A stretch of 64,000 nt of DNA from an uncultured Gammaproteobacteria bacterium (GTDB lineage Bacteria; Pseudomonadota; Gammaproteobacteria; GCA-002705445; GCA-002716945), in the NCBI GenBank assembly GCA_902521725.1, contig CABYTF010000003.1:81709-145708 (forward strand), read 5' to 3'. Position 1 is the first letter of the stretch, and each line of letters starts with the position of its first letter. The notes beneath the pieces were generated by a model, which was not told the DNA's origin, ran no database searches, and worked only from the letters and a program-made list of their open reading frames with translations. Position numbers and translations under genes: made by a program. Shown here piece after piece: positions 49,252 through 59,630 of the stretch.

Positions 49252-49798
49252 TCAGAATAGGTAGCATTTCCTCTTGGATAATTTGATTATTGATGGGTCC
49301 AATATGTTTGTATTGAATTACTTGATTTTTATCCAAAATATATGTCTCAGGCACTCCATATACACCAAGATCAAGTGATAAATCACCTATGCTGTCTTTG
49401 ATAATTATCCTATAGGGATTTCCCCTCATGCTCAACCATCCCATAGCTTCACTTGTCTCATCCTTATAATTAATCCCAATCATATCAATATCTTTATTTT
49501 TTGAAAGCTGAATCAAATATGAGTGCTCTCTCTCACATTCAAGACACCAACTAGCCCATACATTTACAATAGTTTTTTTTTCTAGGAAGTTACTATTTGT
49601 AAGTGTGTCCTTGGTATATAGATCTGTTAGTTTAAATTCCGGAAAAGTTTTGCCAATCAAAGGGGATTCAATCTTTTTAGGATCATAGTGCAGCCCTTTA
49701 TACAGGAATATAGTTACGGATATAAAAATTAGGGCATAGAAGATAGTGATTTTATTCATATATTTTCGATTGCTTAAATCTAATACTAAATATAGCAC
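49244..49798 (-). CDS. ccmG: thiol:disulfide interchange protein DsbE/CcmG
   Basis: WASWCLEC CxxC thioredoxin motif. Single N-terminal TM. Confidence 0.8.
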   Translation of the reverse strand: MLYLVLDLSNRKYMNKITIFYALIFISVTIFLYKGLHYDPKKIESPLIGKTFPEFKLTDLYTKDTLTNSNFLEKKTIVNVWASWCLECEREHSYLIQLSKNKDIDMIGINYKDETSEAMGWLSMRGNPYRIIIKDSIGDLSLDLGVYGVPETYILDKNQVIQYKHIGPINNQIIQEEMLPILSE

Positions 49799-51641
49799 CT
49801 AATATCATGAATATCGTCCCAATCCATATAAGTCTAATCAATGGTTTATCGTAAATTCTCATAGACCATTTATTATCAGATACCATATTTCCAAGTGAAA
49901 CATAAAGATCCCTATCGAGCCTTCCATTTATACCTGCTTCGGTCATCGGAGAATCACTTGAGTGATATAGCCTTTTTTCTGGATTAATTTCTGTAATGAA
50001 TCTGTCATCTTTACTGACAATAATAGAAGCAATTACCGCATCATAATTAGCAGACTTAAACTCTTTGAGATTTTCAAATCTATAATCAAAGACACCTACT
50101 TTTTTTGACTCTCCAATTTCAAGAGTAAACTCTTTCTCTATTTTATTACTCTCTGAGACGCTTGCTCCAATTATAAATATCGCCAGACCAAAATGTGCAA
50201 AGTACATGCCTACTCTTCTTCTAATTTTCACAGAATTATCTGACGATCTATAGAAATCAAAAAGTATATTCGCAATGATCCAAACAGTAGAAAATATACC
50301 AACGAAAAAAAGTACAGATTGTACGGAAAAGATAAATGACAAAAATATACTAATAACAAATATTATAAATAACTGAACTAGTTGTGAATCAATTGAGGTC
50401 CTTGACAGAAGAATAGGAACATAGCCAACCAATAATATCAATGGAATCATTAAAGGCACAAACACAGCATTATAGTAAGGAACCCCCACAGAAATTTTTT
50501 CAAGTCCCAATATATCTAAAAATAACGGATACATTGTTCCAAGAAGGATAGTAAATGTAGCTGTTACAAGAAGAATATTGTTAAGTAAAAAGAAACCTTC
50601 CCTAGAAATAAGTCTTACGTCACTGTCGTCTATGAATTTTTTTGAGTTTAGTGCATAAGATAAAAGTCCTCCACCTATCAATGCAACCAGCATAAATAAT
50701 ATAAATACTCCCCTGGAAGGGTCATTTGCAAAAGAATGAACAGAGATCAAAATACCAGATCTAACTAAAAAAGTGCCAAGCAAACTTAAAGAAAAAGTAA
50801 AAATCGATAATAATATTGTCCAACTTTTAAAAATTCCTCTTTCACTTGTAGCAATCACCGAATGAAGAAGCGCTGTAGCCATAAGCCATGGCATAAAGGA
50901 TGCGTTTTCGACGGGATCCCAGAACCACCATCCTCCCCAGCCTAATTCATAGTATGCCCACCAACTTCCAAGCGCTATCCCTAAAGTTAGAAATGCCCAC
51001 GAGGCTAATACCCAAGGTCTGATCCATTGAGCCCATTCTTTTTTGAAATCATCCTCGAAACAACACGCAACGGCAAAAGAGAAAACAACTGATAGACCAA
51101 CATATCCCATATACAACATTGGAGGGTGAACTATTAAGCCAAAATCTTGTAAAAGTGGATTGAGGTCATTTCCATCAAGAGGGATAGTCATATTTCTATC
51201 AAAAGGATTGGAGGTTGCGACCACAAAAAGAAGAAAGCCAAGATTAAGGATGCCCATTATCGCTAAAAAATTGACTCTCAGGCGCTTGTGTAGATTAGTA
51301 CTGTACATACTTGCAAGAAACATCCAAAAACTTGAGACCACGCACCATAAAAGCATTGATCCCTCATGTCCTGCCCATGCTGCTGATATTTTATATATGA
51401 GCGGAAGGCTTGAATTTGAATTTTTAGATACATAATCTAGAGAGTAGTCTTCACCTACAAAAGTTGTTATCAAGCATAAAAAGGAGATAAGTATAATTGG
51501 AAAGTGTAATTTAGATGCAGAGAATAATATTTCCTGTGAAATATTTGAATTTGTTAATACTTTGGGCGAAAGCAGTATAATACAATTCATAAGGCCTAAT
51601 AGTAGAAGGAAGTGCCCGACATATCCAATCTCGATAATCAT
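49752..51641 (-). CDS. ccmF: cytochrome c-type biogenesis heme lyase CcmF
   Basis: GWGGWWFWDPVEN WWD domain. 629 aa polytopic. Confidence 0.9.
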   Translation of the reverse strand: MIIEIGYVGHFLLLLGLMNCIILLSPKVLTNSNISQEILFSASKLHFPIILISFLCLITTFVGEDYSLDYVSKNSNSSLPLIYKISAAWAGHEGSMLLWCVVSSFWMFLASMYSTNLHKRLRVNFLAIMGILNLGFLLFVVATSNPFDRNMTIPLDGNDLNPLLQDFGLIVHPPMLYMGYVGLSVVFSFAVACCFEDDFKKEWAQWIRPWVLASWAFLTLGIALGSWWAYYELGWGGWWFWDPVENASFMPWLMATALLHSVIATSERGIFKSWTILLSIFTFSLSLLGTFLVRSGILISVHSFANDPSRGVFILFMLVALIGGGLLSYALNSKKFIDDSDVRLISREGFFLLNNILLVTATFTILLGTMYPLFLDILGLEKISVGVPYYNAVFVPLMIPLILLVGYVPILLSRTSIDSQLVQLFIIFVISIFLSFIFSVQSVLFFVGIFSTVWIIANILFDFYRSSDNSVKIRRRVGMYFAHFGLAIFIIGASVSESNKIEKEFTLEIGESKKVGVFDYRFENLKEFKSANYDAVIASIIVSKDDRFITEINPEKRLYHSSDSPMTEAGINGRLDRDLYVSLGNMVSDNKWSMRIYDKPLIRLIWIGTIFMILGAIFSIRFKQSKIYE

Positions 51642-52093
51642 TGAGTAATACTTTCCATAGTTTTATATTTACCATCTTCAGTTAAGCCTAGTGAGTCTTT
51701 TACCTCTGGTGGCATGTAGGTCTCATCATGTTTTGCTAGCACCTCCTCGGCGACAAAAAGGTTATTCTGAAGGTAACCTCTAATCACGACACCCTGACCC
51801 TCTCTAAAAAGATCTGGTAATATTCCATCATACTTAACTAAGACTTTGTTGTTAAAGTCTGTAACGTTAAAAGAAACTTTCTTTGTCCCTGATACTCTAA
51901 TAAGTGAGCCCTCCTCGACCATTCCTCCGATTCTAAATATATAATTATCCGGGAAGTTACCATTAACTAATTGAGTTGGGCTACGGTAATATAACAAGTT
52001 TTCATTAAATGTTTTAACGAATGCATACAAAACGAATCCTAAAATAACGAGTAAAAAGGAAACATAGTAAATTCTTGCGGATCTTTTCTTCAT
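51638..52093 (-). CDS. ccmE: cytochrome c-type biogenesis protein CcmE
   Basis: VLAKHDETYMPPEV heme-binding His region. Confidence 0.85.
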   Translation of the reverse strand: MKKRSARIYYVSFLLVILGFVLYAFVKTFNENLLYYRSPTQLVNGNFPDNYIFRIGGMVEEGSLIRVSGTKKVSFNVTDFNNKVLVKYDGILPDLFREGQGVVIRGYLQNNLFVAEEVLAKHDETYMPPEVKDSLGLTEDGKYKTMESITQ

Positions 52094-53590: not shown

Positions 53591-55561
53591 CTAGAATTTG
53601 TAATCAAGCGATACGTCAAATCCGAAGCTTGATGCTGGTAGTGGGACATGTGCTTTTACAAATGAAGCATGGTTTCTTCTAGTCGTATCTAATAAATTGT
53701 TACCAAATAGATTCACGTTGAGATCATAGTTGTTACTAATGGCAATCTTATTTGAGTATTTCATTGCAAGATCAACATAGGAATTTGTTTCTGTCTCAAT
53801 AGATGAAAAATCTTTTTGACTCTCTGAGAAAATTAAACTTATTACATATGTCTCATTTTTATGACCCAGTATAGCTAGATCTAAAACATTTTTAGCGCTA
53901 GGTATTCTTGGTACATATGTATCGTTTTCAAATGTTGCAGATATATCATCCCTACTTAGGGTAAGAAATAAATCAGTATCACCTAGAGTAAATGGTTTCA
54001 TGTATGAAATTTCATAGCCTTGAAATACAGCATCTTTTTGAGACCAATTAGCATCTTGATGTGTGCCATCATAAGTCTTGGTACCTAAATCTCTCAAGTA
54101 AATAAAGTCTTTAACATCATTGTGATAGAGAGAAAAATCTAAAATGGAATCTCCGCTTGTAAACTGAAGTCCTAGATCAATATTTTTTGAGACTTCTCTA
54201 TCAAGTGAACTATCCCCCTTCTCATATCTGTTTGTCGGTCCATGTTTCCCATCTGCAAATAATTCAGCCATATTGGGGCTTCTTGATACATGTGATAGAC
54301 CCAGATTATATGACAGATTATCTGTAATTTGCTGACTGGTGTTTGTAGATATGCTAATTGCTGAGTCTTCATAATTTTTCGTCGAAGTTAGTCTCTCATT
54401 AAAATCATATCTAAGCGCATAATTAAAATCTAAACCATACATCTTTGACTGAGAGTAATATGCAATTGATCGATCAAAGCTCTCTGACTTTGGAACATAT
54501 GCATTGCTTGAAAATGGGGATTTGGCATGCTCATAACTTAGCAGTAATCTTTTTTCAATATCATTGGAATCAAGATTAAACTTAAAATTATATGCTGTAG
54601 AGTTATTATTCATAACTTTGAAGGTCCCGTTTTCTTCATGCTCTTTAATGTGTGCATTCGTATTGCTGATAGAAAAGTCAAGAGAATGTGCAAATGCAAG
54701 GTTGTCCAATCTTCCGATAAAATTATATGTATCTGACTTATGTGCTGAATAAATCCTATGCTCGCCCTCTTCCTCTTCTTCCTCTTCTTCCTCAGCGTGA
54801 TAGGCTATACCATAAGTACCTTTATTATTCACAAAAGAGAAACTTAAGTAACCCCAATCCTTGATCAATGATAATCCAATAGTTGAACTTTTATCAGCGT
54901 AGTCAGAATTATTTAAGGTATGGACTTCACTACCCTCTTCATAGAGCGATCCCTCTGATAGATCATACTTAAAATAATCTCTCTTATCTTGTGAGAAGTA
55001 AAATGCAATGTCACTGATATTTTTCTTAAGAAGGAAATTATTTGAATAACCTTCGCTGACAGTATCGTAAGATCTACCTAAACTTATTATTTCATCAGTG
55101 TACAACTTATCTGTAGATGAGCCTGTGATTACGTTAACTATACCACCGGTGGTTCCACTGTGATTGAATAATGACGATGGACCTTTGATGATCTCTATGT
55201 GCGATGCATGATTTAGATTTAACATAACCGGATGATCCGCACTGAAAAAACTCAAATCGCTGACATAGTTATTGTTTGAAAGCACTCTCACTCTACTGCC
55301 TCCTAAACCTCTAATGACCGGTTGACCGACAGAAGTACCGTAATCAGAATTAGACACTCCTGGGATACGCCTTAAGTTGGTACCGATAGATTTAGACGGA
55401 TCTAAGTCTTTACCTTCTATTAAAGATGCGGGATATTTATTTTCTGTAATTGAATTAGATAAAATTGATGACTCAACTTTAATAGACGTGAGATCCTCAG
55501 AATGTACATATGGTGTTACAAATAATGCCGCTACTAATGGCATTAACCTAAAAGTTTTCAT
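53591..55561 (-). CDS. TonB-dependent outer-membrane receptor with internal poly-Glu/His loop (ZnuD-like?)
   Basis: Signal peptide and plug region (IRGLGGSRV, GPSSLFN). C-terminal ...LDYKF terminal Phe. Internal YHAEEEEEEEEEGEHRIYSAH segment. Confidence 0.75.
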   Translation of the reverse strand: MKTFRLMPLVAALFVTPYVHSEDLTSIKVESSILSNSITENKYPASLIEGKDLDPSKSIGTNLRRIPGVSNSDYGTSVGQPVIRGLGGSRVRVLSNNNYVSDLSFFSADHPVMLNLNHASHIEIIKGPSSLFNHSGTTGGIVNVITGSSTDKLYTDEIISLGRSYDTVSEGYSNNFLLKKNISDIAFYFSQDKRDYFKYDLSEGSLYEEGSEVHTLNNSDYADKSSTIGLSLIKDWGYLSFSFVNNKGTYGIAYHAEEEEEEEEEGEHRIYSAHKSDTYNFIGRLDNLAFAHSLDFSISNTNAHIKEHEENGTFKVMNNNSTAYNFKFNLDSNDIEKRLLLSYEHAKSPFSSNAYVPKSESFDRSIAYYSQSKMYGLDFNYALRYDFNERLTSTKNYEDSAISISTNTSQQITDNLSYNLGLSHVSRSPNMAELFADGKHGPTNRYEKGDSSLDREVSKNIDLGLQFTSGDSILDFSLYHNDVKDFIYLRDLGTKTYDGTHQDANWSQKDAVFQGYEISYMKPFTLGDTDLFLTLSRDDISATFENDTYVPRIPSAKNVLDLAILGHKNETYVISLIFSESQKDFSSIETETNSYVDLAMKYSNKIAISNNYDLNVNLFGNNLLDTTRRNHASFVKAHVPLPASSFGFDVSLDYKF

Positions 55562-55591
55562 TTATTACTCCTTAATTAATTAAAAAAAATT

Positions 55592-55837
55592 TTAATTAAT
55601 CAGAAGTGGTGGAGCTCGAGTAAAGAAGTATTCTTGAGAGCATTGCTCATGTAAACTCTCTATTTTTTTAGAGAGGGTTTCCTCAAGACAGTGATGTTCT
55701 TTAATGAAATAAACTGAATGGACTTTACCGCATTGGCGACAAACTGAACTGTGTATATGATCATTATCATGGCACTGCTCAGTATGGGTATGTTCGTTTA
55801 CATGATCATGATTATCGCACATGAGATTATGATACAA
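55592..55837 (-). CDS. His/Cys-rich small protein (putative metal-binding), co-directional and upstream of the TonB receptor
   Basis: MCDNHDHVNEHTHTEQCHDNDHIHSSVCRQCGKVH. Confidence 0.4.
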   Translation of the reverse strand: MYHNLMCDNHDHVNEHTHTEQCHDNDHIHSSVCRQCGKVHSVYFIKEHHCLEETLSKKIESLHEQCSQEYFFTRAPPLLIN

Positions 55838-55957
55838 TAAACCATGTCAAAAAGAACTAAATCATTGATCTTAATTATATTTAGTTTGACCGCGTTCTAT
55901 GTTTATCAATATGTCATTGGTATTCTTATTTTATTGCTTGCTATACATACCATAATG

Positions 55958-55981
55958 AATGATTGAATATGCTTGATCATT
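55958..55981. promoter_or_regulatory. candidate Fur/Zur-family operator-like palindrome (AATGAT-n12-ATCATT) upstream of the His-rich gene/TonB receptor operon
   Basis: Palindromic AATGATTGAATATGCTTGATCATT about 120 bp upstream of the 55837 start. Resembles the AATGAT/ATCATT halves of Fur-type boxes. Confidence 0.25.
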
Positions 55982-56109
55982 TGATGTTGATGAGAATTAG
56001 GACTGCTAAACCCACAAAAGAGACTCCAATAAGAAGAAGCTTAAAAATCTCCATTAAAATTACTTTCTTTGTTTTGTCTTTTTCAGCCATAAATATAAGG
56101 TGATTCTCG

Positions 56110-56301
56110 CTAGCCGTAAATAAAAAACCAAATTATTATCAAGACTAATGGAAAAACAACGCTGCCAAATGGATTTGCTTTTAGCATCTCTAGTGACATT
56201 CTTGGATTTGTAAACCAGGCATTTAGAAACTTATATAAATCGGTGGACACAAGCAAGACAATTGCAGCAATTAAAAGATAAAAAAGGATATCATACAACA
56301 T
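56110..56301 (-). CDS. small membrane protein, unknown
   Basis: 63 aa with two TM segments. Confidence 0.25.
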   Translation of the reverse strand: MLYDILFYLLIAAIVLLVSTDLYKFLNAWFTNPRMSLEMLKANPFGSVVFPLVLIIIWFFIYG

Positions 56302-56355
56302 ACATTGGGGATTATAAGATGCTATCCATAATCATACAAATCAAATGATCCTATT

Positions 56356-56724
56356 TTAGAACTTATACTTTGTGTTTATCTTTAGCTGATTGTTATCTTT
56401 AGCTGATGAGTTTAGCTTACTTTCAAACTGAACCTCAAGATCAAGAGAATCAAAATACTTAGTCTCAAATCCAACTTTATAATAATCATAGTCTGATCCA
56501 GATCCAATGGATTGCCCTTCGGTTATGTCCTCTCCAAAACCTATTTCACCAAAAACTTGATAGCCATCGAGCGTAATATTTCTACCAATAACTACTCTTT
56601 GCTCTGTCTGTTCATAAGCTCCATTTTTAAATTTCAGCTCATGCTCTGAGGCAATATAATTATAATCTGAAGCATAAATATCATATGCAAAAGTAGCTAA
56701 ACCAATTAACAACAATTTTTTCAT
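56356..56724 (-). CDS. small secreted beta-rich (OMP-like) protein
   Basis: Signal peptide MKKLLLIGLATFAYDIYA. Alternating hydrophobic pattern. C-terminal ...KYKF. Confidence 0.4.
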   Translation of the reverse strand: MKKLLLIGLATFAYDIYASDYNYIASEHELKFKNGAYEQTEQRVVIGRNITLDGYQVFGEIGFGEDITEGQSIGSGSDYDYYKVGFETKYFDSLDLEVQFESKLNSSAKDNNQLKINTKYKF

Positions 56725-56815
56725 GTCTTCCCCCTAGTTTGGGAAAAGATTAACACATATCGCTAATTTATTAACAGTTATTGACAATAATTCAATAAAA
56801 GCTAATATACCCCAT

Positions 56816-57421
56816 ATGGGTATATATAAATTCATTGGATTATTTGTTGCGCTTATGTCAGCGTCAATAGTTGAGGCCCGTCCAATATCATGGACTGGAG
56901 GTTCAACGATAATGTATAAATCCAACTCAATGATGTCATCGTACTACTATCATTATTCGCCGAGTTTTAAATATTCAGTGGGCGCTGAATATATAAATGA
57001 TAGATATTATAATGATCAATACATTAGTATACGATCTACCTATCTGTTAGACAGGAAAAATACTAAAGCATCTCAGAGAAATTTATATCTAACTGCATCA
57101 ATATCTACAAAAAATAACGATGATTTGTACTATGGCGTCCATGGTGATTGGGAGACACGGAGGTACTTTACTTCTTTTTCAATACTTGATAAACGTGCTA
57201 GTCAAGAGGATTATACTGAAAATGAATTCCAAATAGGTATAGCGCCATACCTTGGAGAATATAATCAGCTTCATACATGGATCATGCTCAAATCAAAAAA
57301 AGATACTAGAGAAGATAAATGGAAAACTTATCCTTTTATCAAGCTATTTAAAGGGGATTTTTTATTAGAAGTTGGAAGTAAAGAGTCGCATTGGGATTTA
57401 CATTTCATGAAAAGGTTTTAA
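56816..57421 (+). CDS. Tyr-rich secreted outer-membrane-like protein
   Basis: Signal peptide ...SIVEA. Amphipathic beta pattern. C-terminal aromatic ...KRF. Confidence 0.4.
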   Translation: MGIYKFIGLFVALMSASIVEARPISWTGGSTIMYKSNSMMSSYYYHYSPSFKYSVGAEYINDRYYNDQYISIRSTYLLDRKNTKASQRNLYLTASISTKNNDDLYYGVHGDWETRRYFTSFSILDKRASQEDYTENEFQIGIAPYLGEYNQLHTWIMLKSKKDTREDKWKTYPFIKLFKGDFLLEVGSKESHWDLHFMKRF

Positions 57422-57438
57422 ATTTATAGGGAGAAAAT

Positions 57439-57849
57439 ATGTATAAAATAATAATATTAACAACATTATTCATTTCTAATAACTTATATGCAATGGATAA
57501 TATGCATGATCATGATTCAAAACAACATGATCATAATTCACATGTTGCAGTAGATGGTTCAAAAACAAAATTAGACGACGCAATGTATAATAAATTCGTC
57601 TCTGACCTTGGTAGTTCTCAAGTAGTTATCGTTGATGTTAATGGAATGGTATGTGACTTTTGTGCCAGAGGAATTGAAAAAACATTTTACGACGATGCTT
57701 TAGTAAAAAGAGTACTAGTAAGTCTTGAGACTGGAAAAGTGCTTATTGCCTATGATAATGCTAAAAAAGTAGACTTTGGAGAAATTAAGAATATATTTTT
57801 ATCTAATGGACAGTCAGCTACTGGTATGACATTGAAGAAAATTACATGA
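57439..57849 (+). CDS. periplasmic heavy-metal-associated (HMA) domain protein, MerP-like with His-rich N-terminal region
   Basis: Signal peptide. MHDHDSKQHDHNSH region. GMVCDFCARGIEK (GMxCxxC) HMA motif. Confidence 0.65.
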   Translation: MYKIIILTTLFISNNLYAMDNMHDHDSKQHDHNSHVAVDGSKTKLDDAMYNKFVSDLGSSQVVIVDVNGMVCDFCARGIEKTFYDDALVKRVLVSLETGKVLIAYDNAKKVDFGEIKNIFLSNGQSATGMTLKKIT

Positions 57850-58223
57850 CCAATAAACAAGAATCGTCAAAGCTAGGTTTGTTGACGCTTTTAGCTTCAA
57901 CGTCAACATTAATATGTTGTGCTTTACCTGCACTGTTTGTAGCCCTCGGTGCAGGCGCTACTTTTGCATCAATGGTTAATGCTTTTCCGCAGCTTGTTGT
58001 AATTTCACACTATAAAATATATATATCGGTTATAACGTTAATAATTCTTGTTATTGCTGGTCTTTTAATTGAAAAATCTAAAAATGATCCATGTCCAGTA
58101 GATCCAGATTTAAGAGACATTTGCTTGAGAACCAGAAAAAGGACTTCTAGTATCTATTACGTATCTGTTGGTATATTCATATTCGCTAGCTTCTTCACTT
58201 ACGTTCTACCGGAGTATCTATAA
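57846..58223 (+). CDS. MerT-like metal transport membrane protein
   Basis: TM1 contains vicinal Cys (STLICCALPALFVALGAG) as in MerT. A second Cys (DPCPVD) lies in the loop. 125 aa. Confidence 0.5.
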   Translation: MTNKQESSKLGLLTLLASTSTLICCALPALFVALGAGATFASMVNAFPQLVVISHYKIYISVITLIILVIAGLLIEKSKNDPCPVDPDLRDICLRTRKRTSSIYYVSVGIFIFASFFTYVLPEYL

Positions 58224-58225
58224 CT

Positions 58226-58489
58226 ATGAAAGATCATCCATCGCATCAATCTCAGTTGTCTGCTCTTAAAAGAGTCGAAGGTCAAATTAGAGGTGTAATC
58301 AAAATGATTGATGAGGGTAAATATTGTATAGATGTCATAAACCAGATCAAAGCTGCAAAAGCTGCTTTAGTAAGAATTGAGTCAAATGTTCTAAAAAAAC
58401 ACGTTGAATCTTGTGTAGTAGAGTCATTTAAAAATAAGAAAGCTCTTGATAATAAAGTCGAAGAGCTATTAAAGTTGATCAATAAATGA
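58226..58489 (+). CDS. csoR: CsoR/RcnR/FrmR-family metal-sensing repressor (CsoR-like C-H-C spacing)
   Basis: LKRVEGQIRGVIKMIDEGKYCIDVINQIKAAKAAL. Cys34, His59, Cys63 have the same spacing as the M. tuberculosis CsoR ligands. Confidence 0.7.
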   Translation: MKDHPSHQSQLSALKRVEGQIRGVIKMIDEGKYCIDVINQIKAAKAALVRIESNVLKKHVESCVVESFKNKKALDNKVEELLKLINK

Positions 58490-59267: not shown

Positions 59268-59630
59268 ATGAATTTAATAAAAGTTATAGAAAAAGGATTG
59301 CTTGGTGTGATTGCCTTACTAACGATTGTTGCAACCATCCAAGAGATAATGTCAATATACACAATTGGTAGAGTAAACTTGCCAGATTTGTTGTTACTGT
59401 TTATATACACAGAGGTTTTAGGCATGATTGGTGTATTCTATGTAAGTAACAAAATACCTATAACATTACCCTTGTTCATTGCCATGACGGCACTATCAAG
59501 ATTGATAATATTACAGGGTAAAGACATGGAACCAAGTACATTAATTTACGAAGCGGGTGCAATATTACTGATTGCAATTGCTTGTCTGATCATTAGATAT
59601 AGACCACCCAATCAGAGTAAAGAATTATGA
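59268..59630 (+). CDS. psiE: PsiE-family (phosphate-starvation-inducible E-like) membrane protein
   Basis: Topology and the ALSRLIILQGKD...LIYEAGAILLIAIA motif resemble E. coli PsiE. Confidence 0.45.
   Translation: MNLIKVIEKGLLGVIALLTIVATIQEIMSIYTIGRVNLPDLLLLFIYTEVLGMIGVFYVSNKIPITLPLFIAMTALSRLIILQGKDMEPSTLIYEAGAILLIAIACLIIRYRPPNQSKEL

Follow-up and report, generated by a model that had tools for sequence, protein, structure and literature searches.

We analysed a 64-kb stretch of DNA from an uncultured gammaproteobacterium (contig CABYTF010000003.1; the whole stretch is referred to here as the window) and focused on a group of plus-strand genes that combines relatives of mercury transport proteins with a copper-type repressor. 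An earlier note on this DNA had described a MerP-like/MerT-like pair followed by a CsoR-type regulator, preceded by two small genes for outer-membrane-like proteins. All five open reading frames (ORFs) of that note were recovered at the same positions, and the pair and the Cu(I)-type CsoR regulator are present, with the regulator gene last. The module does not start at 57439, however, as the note had proposed; it starts at 56816, with a barrel gene that is the conserved first gene of a four-gene operon spanning 56816–58489. The four genes encode, in order, a 201-amino-acid secreted protein predicted with AlphaFold2 and Foldseek to be a 12-stranded outer-membrane beta-barrel (gene 1, 56816–57421), a 136-amino-acid, putatively periplasmic HMA metallochaperone-like protein with an HMA domain and a signal peptide (gene 2, 57439–57849), a 125-amino-acid membrane protein placed in the MerT superfamily by profile-profile comparison (gene 3, 57846–58223), and an 87-amino-acid protein matching Pfam PF02583, a predicted Cu(I)-sensing repressor of the CsoR type (gene 4, 58226–58489).

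A conserved four-gene operon in marine bacteria

Successive genes of the operon are separated in the window by 17, −4 and 2 nt. The 17-nt gap between genes 1 and 2 contains a GGAG ribosome-binding site, the stop codon of gene 2 overlaps the start codon of gene 3 (ATGA), and gene 4 begins 2 nt past the end of gene 3. The corresponding median gaps among relatives are 11, 3 and 2 nt, and the spacing thus reads as operon-like both in the window and in related loci. The window has a GC content of ~32%, and the closest relatives of the locus are SAR86-type marine Gammaproteobacteria. We consider the members of the operon to be genuine genes rather than chance ORFs because the MerT-like protein has 531 homologues and the barrel ~1900, and because the gene order is conserved.

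We searched the window for the enzymes and pumps of known mercury and copper systems. The P-type ATPase motif DKTGT is absent from all six reading frames, and none of the large ORFs of the window encodes MerA or a multicopper oxidase; the large ORFs are instead housekeeping genes (TldD/PmbA, PGI, a class II tRNA synthetase of the His/Pro/Ser/Thr type, DXS, CcmF and argininosuccinate synthase). The lack of DKTGT, together with the housekeeping identity of the large ORFs, indicates that the window contains no MerA, P-type ATPase or multicopper oxidase, in agreement with the earlier note, and a classical mer or cop operon is ruled out for the window. Neither merR nor merA was found in the window or in the conserved neighbourhood of the operon.

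The MerT-like protein has its 531 homologue clusters almost entirely in marine metagenomes. In a scan of one genome per species, relatives of this protein were detected in 265 genomes, the best 80 of which belong to SAR86, Porticoccaceae (SAR92, HTCC2207) and a few Alphaproteobacteria such as IMCC14465. We then compared family profiles with all ORFs of 88 related loci. The barrel gene was found, as first gene, in 87 of the 88, the HMA gene in all 88, the MerT-like gene in 87 and the CsoR gene in 85. The order barrel-HMA-MerT-CsoR is kept in ~85 of these loci, and neither the relative order nor the shared strand of the core genes ever varies. Comparison of neighbourhoods in related genomes, one of the checks proposed in the earlier note, therefore supports a conserved four-gene arrangement. 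Clustering of the flanking genes revealed no other neighbour in more than 22 of the 88 loci.

Four loci (L011, L028, L068 and L031) carry a near-identical SAR86-type operon under labels of metagenome-assembled genomes from other groups, such as Flavobacteriales, Dehalococcoidales, Rhodobacteraceae and Alphaproteobacteria. These labels are probably binning errors rather than cases of horizontal transfer. The isolate IMCC14465 (Alphaproteobacteria) is a genuine carrier.

The last gene encodes a predicted Cu(I)-sensing CsoR

The 87-amino-acid product of gene 4 matches Pfam PF02583 (Trns_repr_metal) with E = 1.3e-25 and 90 bits, compared with a gathering cut-off of 22.8. Among NCBIfam models, that of the copper sensor RicR matches it best (1.9e-18), and its best PDB matches are the CsoR proteins of Streptomyces lividans (4ADZ, 7.8e-15) and Geobacillus thermodenitrificans (4M1P, 2.8e-14). 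InrS was also matched in the PDB (8.8e-9), ranking below four CsoR entries. Residues C34, H59 and C63 align with the YCID...H...C ligand pattern of the S. lividans and G. thermodenitrificans CsoR proteins, and all three are invariant in 76 distinct orthologues, as are H7, R16, G19, Q20, G23, M27, Y33, Q40, A43, E52, L56, K77 and E80. The invariant Tyr directly precedes the first Cys, and the invariant Glu lies 17 residues after the last Cys. We take Y33 and E80, by their positions, to be the equivalents of the second-shell residues Tyr35 and Glu81 of Mycobacterium tuberculosis CsoR. In CsoR, this second-shell Tyr/Glu pair couples Cu(I) binding to release of DNA. At the RLXR DNA-contact motif in helix 1 the protein has ALKR, of which only the second Arg (R16) is invariant. 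The description of gene 4 in the earlier note, as a CsoR/RcnR-family regulator with a Cys34/His59/Cys63 triad, is thus upheld: the family match is strong, Cu(I)-sensing CsoR proteins are the closest relatives and the triad is invariant.

Other members of the family were considered as alternative identities. A match to FrmR was weak (3.7e-6, 27.3 bits, compared with a cut-off of 133), and the protein starts with MKD, lacking Pro2; with the Cys/His/Cys triad conserved in orthologues, the FrmR alternative that the earlier note had named as a possible refutation fails. RcnR, whose ligand fingerprint is an N-terminal His plus His-x3-His, scored 6.6e-8 (33.1 bits, compared with a cut-off of 138), and the position known as Z in this family is occupied by Cys. 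InrS is outranked by Cu(I)-sensing CsoR proteins among the PDB matches, and Lys2 occupies the InrS "W" ligand position. This last placement uses the alignment offset to InrS, by which the N-terminal His ligand of InrS would fall on Lys2, and would give the regulator an x-C-H-C fingerprint. The invariant His7 in the N-terminal tail aligns with neither the RcnR nor the InrS N-terminal ligand position; it could serve as a lid or as an extra ligand. On the basis of these comparisons, we reject FrmR, RcnR and InrS as identities, and gene 4 is predicted to encode a Cu(I)-sensing CsoR that is autoregulated through an operator at the head of the operon.

A CsoR operator overlaps the promoter and start codon of the first gene

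The best promoter-like site of the region is a sigma-70-type promoter on the plus strand at 56781–56808, with a −35 element TTGACA (56781–56786), a 16-nt spacer and a −10 element TAATAT (56803–56808), matching 10 of 12 consensus positions. From the end of the −10 element to the ATG of gene 1 (56816) there are 7 nt. Overlapping this promoter is a candidate type-2 CsoR operator, ATATACCCCATATGGGTATAT (56805–56825), a TAC-N9-GTA dyad with C/G tracts. The −10 element overlaps the left arm of the operator, the start codon of gene 1 lies inside the palindrome, and the right arm consists of the first codons of gene 1, ATG GGT ATA. The core pattern occurs once in the window, compared with 0.04 occurrences expected. 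The type-2 CsoR consensus of streptomycetes has been experimentally defined as ATATACCCCTNAGGGGTATAT, and its TAC-X9-GTA dyad is essential for CsoR binding and common to sites in Staphylococcus aureus, Listeria monocytogenes and Bacillus subtilis (PMC3902906). The site ATATACCCCATATGGGTATAT fits both this published consensus and the dyad. The earlier note had suggested looking for an operator upstream of 57439; we found none there, and the site at 56805–56825 is the only one in the window.

The position of the operator is conserved. Each of the first seven related loci contains a single TACCC-N-GGGTA site, which in every case marks the 5' end of gene 1, and a site at the same place was found in 78 of a non-redundant subset of ~84 related loci. 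Porticoccaceae loci have the operator displaced by 6 nt, with no change in the distance from the −10 element to the ATG.

The spacing between promoter and start codon is likewise conserved. Of 73 loci, 70 have a TAnnnT hexamer whose end lies 6–9 nt upstream of the start codon (7 nt in 53), and a Shine–Dalgarno-like motif precedes gene 1 in only 2; gene 1 of the window lacks one. Because of this −10-to-ATG geometry, and its conservation in relatives, the operon transcript is probably leaderless, with a start site that would be covered by the repressor; this is deduced from the geometry rather than from a mapped start. Leaderless mRNA is unusual for Gammaproteobacteria.

Genes 2 and 3 encode an HMA protein and a distant MerT relative

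The 136-amino-acid product of gene 2 consists of a signal peptide (…NNLYA|MD), a His-rich mature N-terminus (MHDHDSKQHDHNSH) and an HMA domain with the motif GMVCDFC, which is the sole GMxCxxC motif in the window. These are the features that the earlier note had reported for a periplasmic HMA protein with a His-rich N-terminus and GMxCxxC, and all of them were seen. The protein was compared with the HMA families PF00403, TIGR02052 and NF033795. The Pfam HMA match covers residues 65–118 (E = 8e-4, 20.1 bits, compared with a cut-off of 24.8). Among NCBIfam models, CopZ matched best (4.6e-9; CopZ_Bs, 36.3 bits, compared with a cut-off of 91), ahead of MerP (3.7e-3, 17.7 bits, compared with a cut-off of 92.55). 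The sequence GMVCDFCARGIEKTF is invariant in orthologues, and GMVCDFCA is kept in at least 98% of 83 distinct orthologues. The His-rich tail has the pattern HxH…HxH, and HEGHxH in most relatives. An N-terminal signal peptide, as judged from the sequence, is conserved across orthologues, and from this the HMA protein is predicted to be periplasmic.

The 125-amino-acid product of gene 3 has a vicinal Cys pair, Cys24-Cys25, in its first hydrophobic helix and a second pair, Cys83 and Cys93, in the Lys/Arg-rich loop between helices 2 and 3, for which a cytoplasmic location is predicted. Across 18 aligned relatives, neither the four Cys residues nor the STLICCALPA motif shows any variation, and the vicinal pair is conserved (≥90%) across 78 distinct orthologues. 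We observed no match of the window protein to Pfam MerT (PF02411), and its match to NCBIfam MerT (NF010314) was weak (1.2e-3, 18.9 bits, compared with a cut-off of 150); 7 of the 18 relatives match Pfam MerT, the best with 1.2e-5. Profile-profile comparison with hhalign aligned residues 1–124 of the MerT-like family with residues 1–115 of annotated MerT (95.2% probability, E = 2.9e-8), the reference being three annotated MerT proteins from plasmid mer operons (plasmid merT at L089 and L090). In this alignment C24C25 falls on the C24C25 of MerT, and the second pair is C-x9-C compared with C-x5-C in MerT. Thus, the MerT homology on which the earlier note had staked its description is recovered by profile-profile comparison, over the full length of the protein and including the vicinal Cys pair of transmembrane helix 1. 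As judged from this alignment, the gene 3 product belongs to the MerT superfamily, if distantly, and is not orthologous to MerT. AlphaFold2 placed helices at 7–33, 57–79 and 87–124 with a low mean predicted local distance difference test score (pLDDT) of 61, and the hydrophobic stretches agree with these positions. A search of the PDB with the family yielded no sequence match, even at E = 10.

The first gene encodes a predicted outer-membrane barrel of a new family

The 201-amino-acid product of gene 1 matches no Pfam or NCBIfam family, and no PDB sequence even by profile at E = 10. With the single sequence 1001 homologues were found, and with a profile 1920. An exhaustive profile search yielded 701 clusters at 50% identity (E ≤ 1e-3), 453 of them with E ≤ 1e-10, and places the family well beyond SAR86 and Porticoccaceae. 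Among the matches listed, all homologues are unnamed or "hypothetical", and all are without a Pfam domain. AlphaFold2, given an alignment of 40 sequences, produced a model with a pLDDT of 83.6 and a predicted template modelling score of 0.74, consisting of a signal helix followed by 12 beta strands. Foldseek matched this model to 12-stranded outer-membrane barrels, namely the beta-domains of invasin and intimin and FapF (E ~5e-4), and to the KdgM porin (template modelling scores of 0.55/0.63). The protein ends in ...MKRF, of which the terminal RF is nearly invariant. Gene 1 is thus predicted, from the model, to encode a 12-stranded outer-membrane barrel.

Invariant residues of the barrel occupy alternating strand positions: S42/Y44/H46/S48, H109/D111/E113, H153/W155/M157/K159 and H196/M198/R200. 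This alternating pattern suggests that the lumen of the barrel is lined with His, Met and acidic residues.

The barrel-HMA-MerT triad extends beyond CsoR-encoding loci

A metagenome scan with distant barrel sequences yielded 80 further loci (L091–L170) with GC contents of 27 to 63%. The barrel-HMA-MerT-like triad is intact in ~68 of these, and most of the others are on truncated contigs. CsoR is encoded in only 7 of the 80; an operator is present at the barrel gene in 3 of these 7 loci, and in none of the 73 without a CsoR gene. Because the triad persists in such diverse loci, mostly without CsoR, we conclude that the conserved functional core is the triad, CsoR having been recruited as regulator in the marine gammaproteobacterial branch that includes the window.

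Two barrel clusters, represented by P0449 and P0489, consist of 360-amino-acid products that read in frame from a heavy-metal MerR-type regulator into a homologue of the barrel. The barrel part has its own signal peptide, and these products are probably two genes in the same frame or a read-through in gene calling. The regulator part matches Pfam MerR_1 and MerR-DNA-bind; the NCBIfam models ZntR, CueR and MerR match it about equally well, all below their cut-offs. Its sequence includes a CPGD…CP loop and, at the position typical of divalent-metal sensors, a Cys. By its sequence, then, the barrel gene in these lineages lies directly behind a different metal-excess sensor.

Other genes recur near the triad in parts of the wider family. 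In 24 metagenome loci, a gene for a small secreted Cys/His/Met-rich protein (114–139 amino acids) lies 40–75 bp upstream of the barrel gene on the same strand; these proteins form three sequence clusters, one of which has a weak DUF2946 match. In 5 high-GC metagenome loci, SCO1/SenC is encoded on the opposite strand just downstream. The window contains neither an upstream gene for a Cys/His/Met-rich protein nor a SCO1/SenC gene.

Flanking genes are not conserved with the operon

Upstream of the operon in the window is a divergent four-gene cluster on the minus strand (53591–56724). It encodes a ZnuD-like TonB-dependent receptor (53591–55561) whose match to NCBIfam ZnuD (1e-58) is far below the cut-off and which has a poly-Glu/His loop (HAEEEEEEEEGEH), an 81-amino-acid His/Cys-rich ORF without a signal peptide (55592–55837), a 63-amino-acid membrane ORF (56110–56301) and a 122-amino-acid small barrel (56356–56724; Pfam Phage_OMP, 26.3 bits, compared with a cut-off of 27). 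The four genes co-occur with the operon in only 7–12 of the 88 related loci; the 122-amino-acid gene was found in 7, the 81-amino-acid ORF in 9 and a TonB receptor of the window type in 12. The cluster is lineage-specific and may be a separate metal-uptake unit. The earlier note had proposed both small outer-membrane-like genes as outer-membrane partners of the module. This holds for the 201-amino-acid barrel (87 of 88 loci) and not for the 122-amino-acid gene, which we rejected as a second partner; wherever it occurs, it accompanies the divergent cluster of TonB receptor and His/Cys-rich ORF.

Genes for PepSY_TM proteins, TonB receptors and a short-chain dehydrogenase/reductase lie beside the operon in the first loci examined. 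They were rejected as parts of the system, none being present in more than 22 of the 88 loci. The TonB receptors may hint at a metal-related neighbourhood. In some SAR86 relatives (L001–L004), the CsoR gene is followed by a same-strand gene for a 219-amino-acid PepSY_TM protein, whose start codon overlaps the CsoR stop codon; L001 also has DUF2141 and DUF2306 genes further downstream. Downstream of the CsoR gene in the window there are only small unannotated ORFs and psiE (59268–59630); PepSY_TM, DUF2141 and DUF2306 genes are absent there. A few kb upstream of the operon, at 49752–52093, the window contains ccmF (Pfam CcmF_C) and a 151-amino-acid ORF that looks like ccmE. This region is housekeeping context and is unlinked to the operon in relatives.

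Discussion

A candidate copper-defence operon

We favour, with moderate confidence, the view that 56781–58489 is a self-regulated, Cu(I)-derepressed, ATPase-free operon for copper defence across the cell envelope. At low cytoplasmic Cu(I), a CsoR tetramer would sit on the palindrome that covers the −10 element and the first start codon, blocking transcription. Binding of Cu(I) to Cys34/His59/Cys63 would release CsoR from the DNA, and the four genes would then be expressed from one, probably leaderless, transcript. The outer-membrane barrel, the periplasmic HMA protein and the MerT-like inner-membrane protein would provide one metal-binding station per envelope compartment. Copper could be passed between them by ligand exchange, involving the Cys pairs on the cytoplasmic side and in the membrane, the CxxC and His tail of the periplasmic protein, and the barrel. 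An outward path would lead from the cytoplasm or periplasm to the HMA protein, from there to the barrel and finally to seawater, and might be driven by proton exchange on the thiols or by oxidation of Cu(I) in the periplasm. That copper is the metal, and that the three envelope proteins cooperate physically, we infer from the identity and arrangement of the genes.

A role in defence is suggested because the switch of the operon is a sensor of copper excess, and CsoR regulons have been described as copper efflux or defence systems (PMC3902906). The MerR-type sensor that reads into the barrel homologue in two clusters is, as far as its sequence can tell, an independent tie to metal excess. The earlier note had raised the possibility of metal import; this has not been established, and derepression by Cu(I) argues for a defence role. 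We hold the direction of transport more loosely, a little short of even confidence: efflux or removal is our tentative preference because two unrelated metal-excess sensors are attached to the system, because clustering of the flanks of more than 150 loci revealed no co-encoded cytoplasmic sink, and because an outer-membrane pore would be induced together with the other components. In its most far-reaching form, the proposal would be that the triad is a complete ATPase-free path for copper efflux across both membranes, using an outward MerT-type thiol relay driven by protons or oxidation, that it is the main copper defence of streamlined and highly abundant ocean bacteria (SAR86, SAR92 and their relatives), and that it has been rewired to other metal sensors in other Proteobacteria. 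We regard this full form as doubtful.

Several observations weigh against an outward copper-defence system. In mer systems, MerT and MerP function in import. The operon contains no recognisable energy-coupling module, and a passive relay would therefore run inward under copper stress. Some neighbours in the wider family point to copper supply (SCO1/SenC in 5 loci, the Cys/His/Met-rich proteins, TonB receptors). Proteins of the CsoR family with a Cys-His-Cys site can bind Ag(I) and other metals too. In addition, the HMA and MerT-like proteins fall below every curated family cut-off, and the AlphaFold2 model of the MerT-like protein is poor (pLDDT 61) and was used for the helix count only.

Some of these points are what would be expected of an inward relay resembling that of mer, in which the barrel would admit copper, the His-rich HMA protein would capture it and the MerT-like protein would hand it to the cytoplasm, either to clear reactive Cu(I) from the periplasm into the thiol-buffered cytoplasm or to supply cuproenzymes. 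Homology to the MerT/MerP importer pair and the MerT-like placement of the Cys pairs fit such a relay, as do the lack of an ATPase or other energy module in the operon and, in certain lineages, the presence close to the triad of SCO1/SenC, DUF2946-like small proteins and TonB receptors; His-rich tails, moreover, are common on metal-acquisition proteins. However, with a copper-excess sensor as the switch, nutritional uptake would be off exactly when copper is scarce. Clustering of the flanks at more than 150 loci revealed no co-encoded MerA-like cytoplasmic sink, and an additional outer-membrane pore and an importer, if induced under copper stress, would do harm without a sink in some other place. 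We consider an inward relay the main rival, possible if on balance unlikely. The Cys pairs also lend themselves to a scheme with no metal transport at all, in which the HMA protein would act as a sponge for Cu(I) in the periplasm, and the membrane protein, with its four Cys residues, would keep the CxxC of the HMA protein reduced with reducing equivalents from the cytoplasm, following the logic of DsbD or ScsB-ScsC. Induction by copper of a periplasmic CxxC protein together with a membrane protein that has one membrane and one cytoplasmic Cys pair would suit this scheme, and thiol relays in copper tolerance have precedent in Scs and DsbD/CutA2. By contrast, we saw no homology to CcdA, DsbD or ScsB, the alignment of the membrane protein is with MerT, whose accepted role is metal relay rather than electron relay, and the conserved outer-membrane barrel would be left unexplained, making sequestration with thiol-redox protection improbable.

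An alternative of a different kind is that the system handles another thiophilic metal, or that its regulator senses Hg(II), Ag(I), Ni/Co, formaldehyde or persulfide. The MerT/MerP-like character of the transport pair could be read this way, as could the barrel-fused MerR-type regulators, with their divalent-sensor Cys and equal ZntR, CueR and MerR scores, and the invariant His7, which could be an extra ligand. We give this little credence. CsoR/RicR (1.9e-18) scores far above RcnR (6.6e-8) and FrmR (3.7e-6), Cu(I)-sensing CsoR proteins rank ahead of InrS, the x-C-H-C fingerprint is that of Cu(I) sensors, Pro2 is absent and His59 is kept; CstR-type persulfide sensors are not known to have the His equivalent to His59. 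The operator, furthermore, is of the type-2 copper-CsoR class, and the window contains no merA or merR. Copper defence, with outward transport as its tentative direction, is thus the interpretation that we carry into the following comparison.

Significance and comparison with known systems

Copper toxicity and copper limitation both shape bacterial communities of the surface ocean, and the copper systems of the dominant uncultured heterotrophs have been inferred almost wholly from E. coli and Bacillus paradigms (CopA, CueO, Cus). The operon described here occurs widely in ocean bacteria of high abundance, among them SAR86 and SAR92, and joins parts of mer transport and CsoR regulation with an undescribed family of outer-membrane barrels. 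If it does transport copper, it would represent a new class of copper transporter, MerT-type proteins would not be restricted to mercury, and its genes would serve as a set of markers by which to follow copper stress in metagenomes and metatranscriptomes from the ocean. The operator-embedded start codon and the apparently leaderless geometry offer a compact example of repressor control in Gammaproteobacteria. Cultured carriers exist (SAR92 isolates such as H921 and H231, HTCC2207, IMCC14465), making the system directly testable. A literature search on MerT and MerT-like proteins with CsoR or copper, on SAR86 with copper and on the operator sequences yielded no description of the operon. Its parts are known: the MerT superfamily, HMA metallochaperones, CsoR with its type-2 operator, and 12-stranded outer-membrane barrels. 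What is undescribed is their assembly, with CsoR over a MerT-type protein, a periplasmic His-tailed HMA protein, a new barrel family in first place and a start codon inside the operator.

The closest comparison for genes 2 and 3 is the MerT/MerP pair of mer operons (e.g. Tn501). The gene 3 product shares with MerT its small size, a vicinal Cys pair in helix 1, two further Cys residues in the basic loop that joins helices 2 and 3 and, as far as the low-confidence model can tell, a three-helix build; as in mer, a secreted HMA protein with GMxCxxC adjoins the membrane protein. By contrast, gene 3 is only ~21% identical to MerT, falls below the Pfam and NCBIfam cut-offs and has C-x9-C rather than C-x5-C as its second pair. 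The HMA gene precedes the MerT gene, the reverse of merT-merP, and its product has a His-rich N-terminal extension. MerR and MerA are lacking, the regulator is a CsoR, and an outer-membrane barrel is co-transcribed.

In regulation, the operon resembles the CsoR-controlled copZA/cso operons of M. tuberculosis, B. subtilis, S. lividans and L. monocytogenes. Shared features are a Cys-His-Cys CsoR with a Tyr/Glu second shell, a promoter-overlapping type-2 operator (TAC-N9-GTA), autoregulation, here predicted, and an HMA protein in the regulon. The putative transporter under its control, however, is not a P1B-type ATPase, and the HMA protein is periplasmic rather than cytoplasmic, as far as its signal peptide can tell. 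Moreover, the host is a Gram-negative gammaproteobacterium, a group in which CueR or CopRS usually act, gene 1 has its start codon inside the operator, and the regulator gene comes last.

In the layout proposed here, the system is similar to CusCFBA, with CusF, and to PcoB/CopB: all would be copper-induced, with one component per envelope compartment and a small periplasmic metallochaperone alongside an outer-membrane barrel. Unlike the Cus and Pco systems, the operon encodes no resistance-nodulation-division pump and no membrane-fusion protein, the ligands are Cys and His rather than Met and Trp, and the barrel is small, monomer-sized and 12-stranded, without a Pfam, NCBIfam or PDB sequence match. 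In predicted fold and size this barrel is like KdgM (4FQE/4PR7), the invasin and intimin beta-domains and FapF, all of which have 12 strands. By contrast, its identity to KdgM-family and other 12-stranded barrels is ~10%, it stands outside their sequence families and in a different genomic context, and, compared with KdgM-type barrels, the conserved residues that alternate along its strands are rich in His, Met and acidic side chains.

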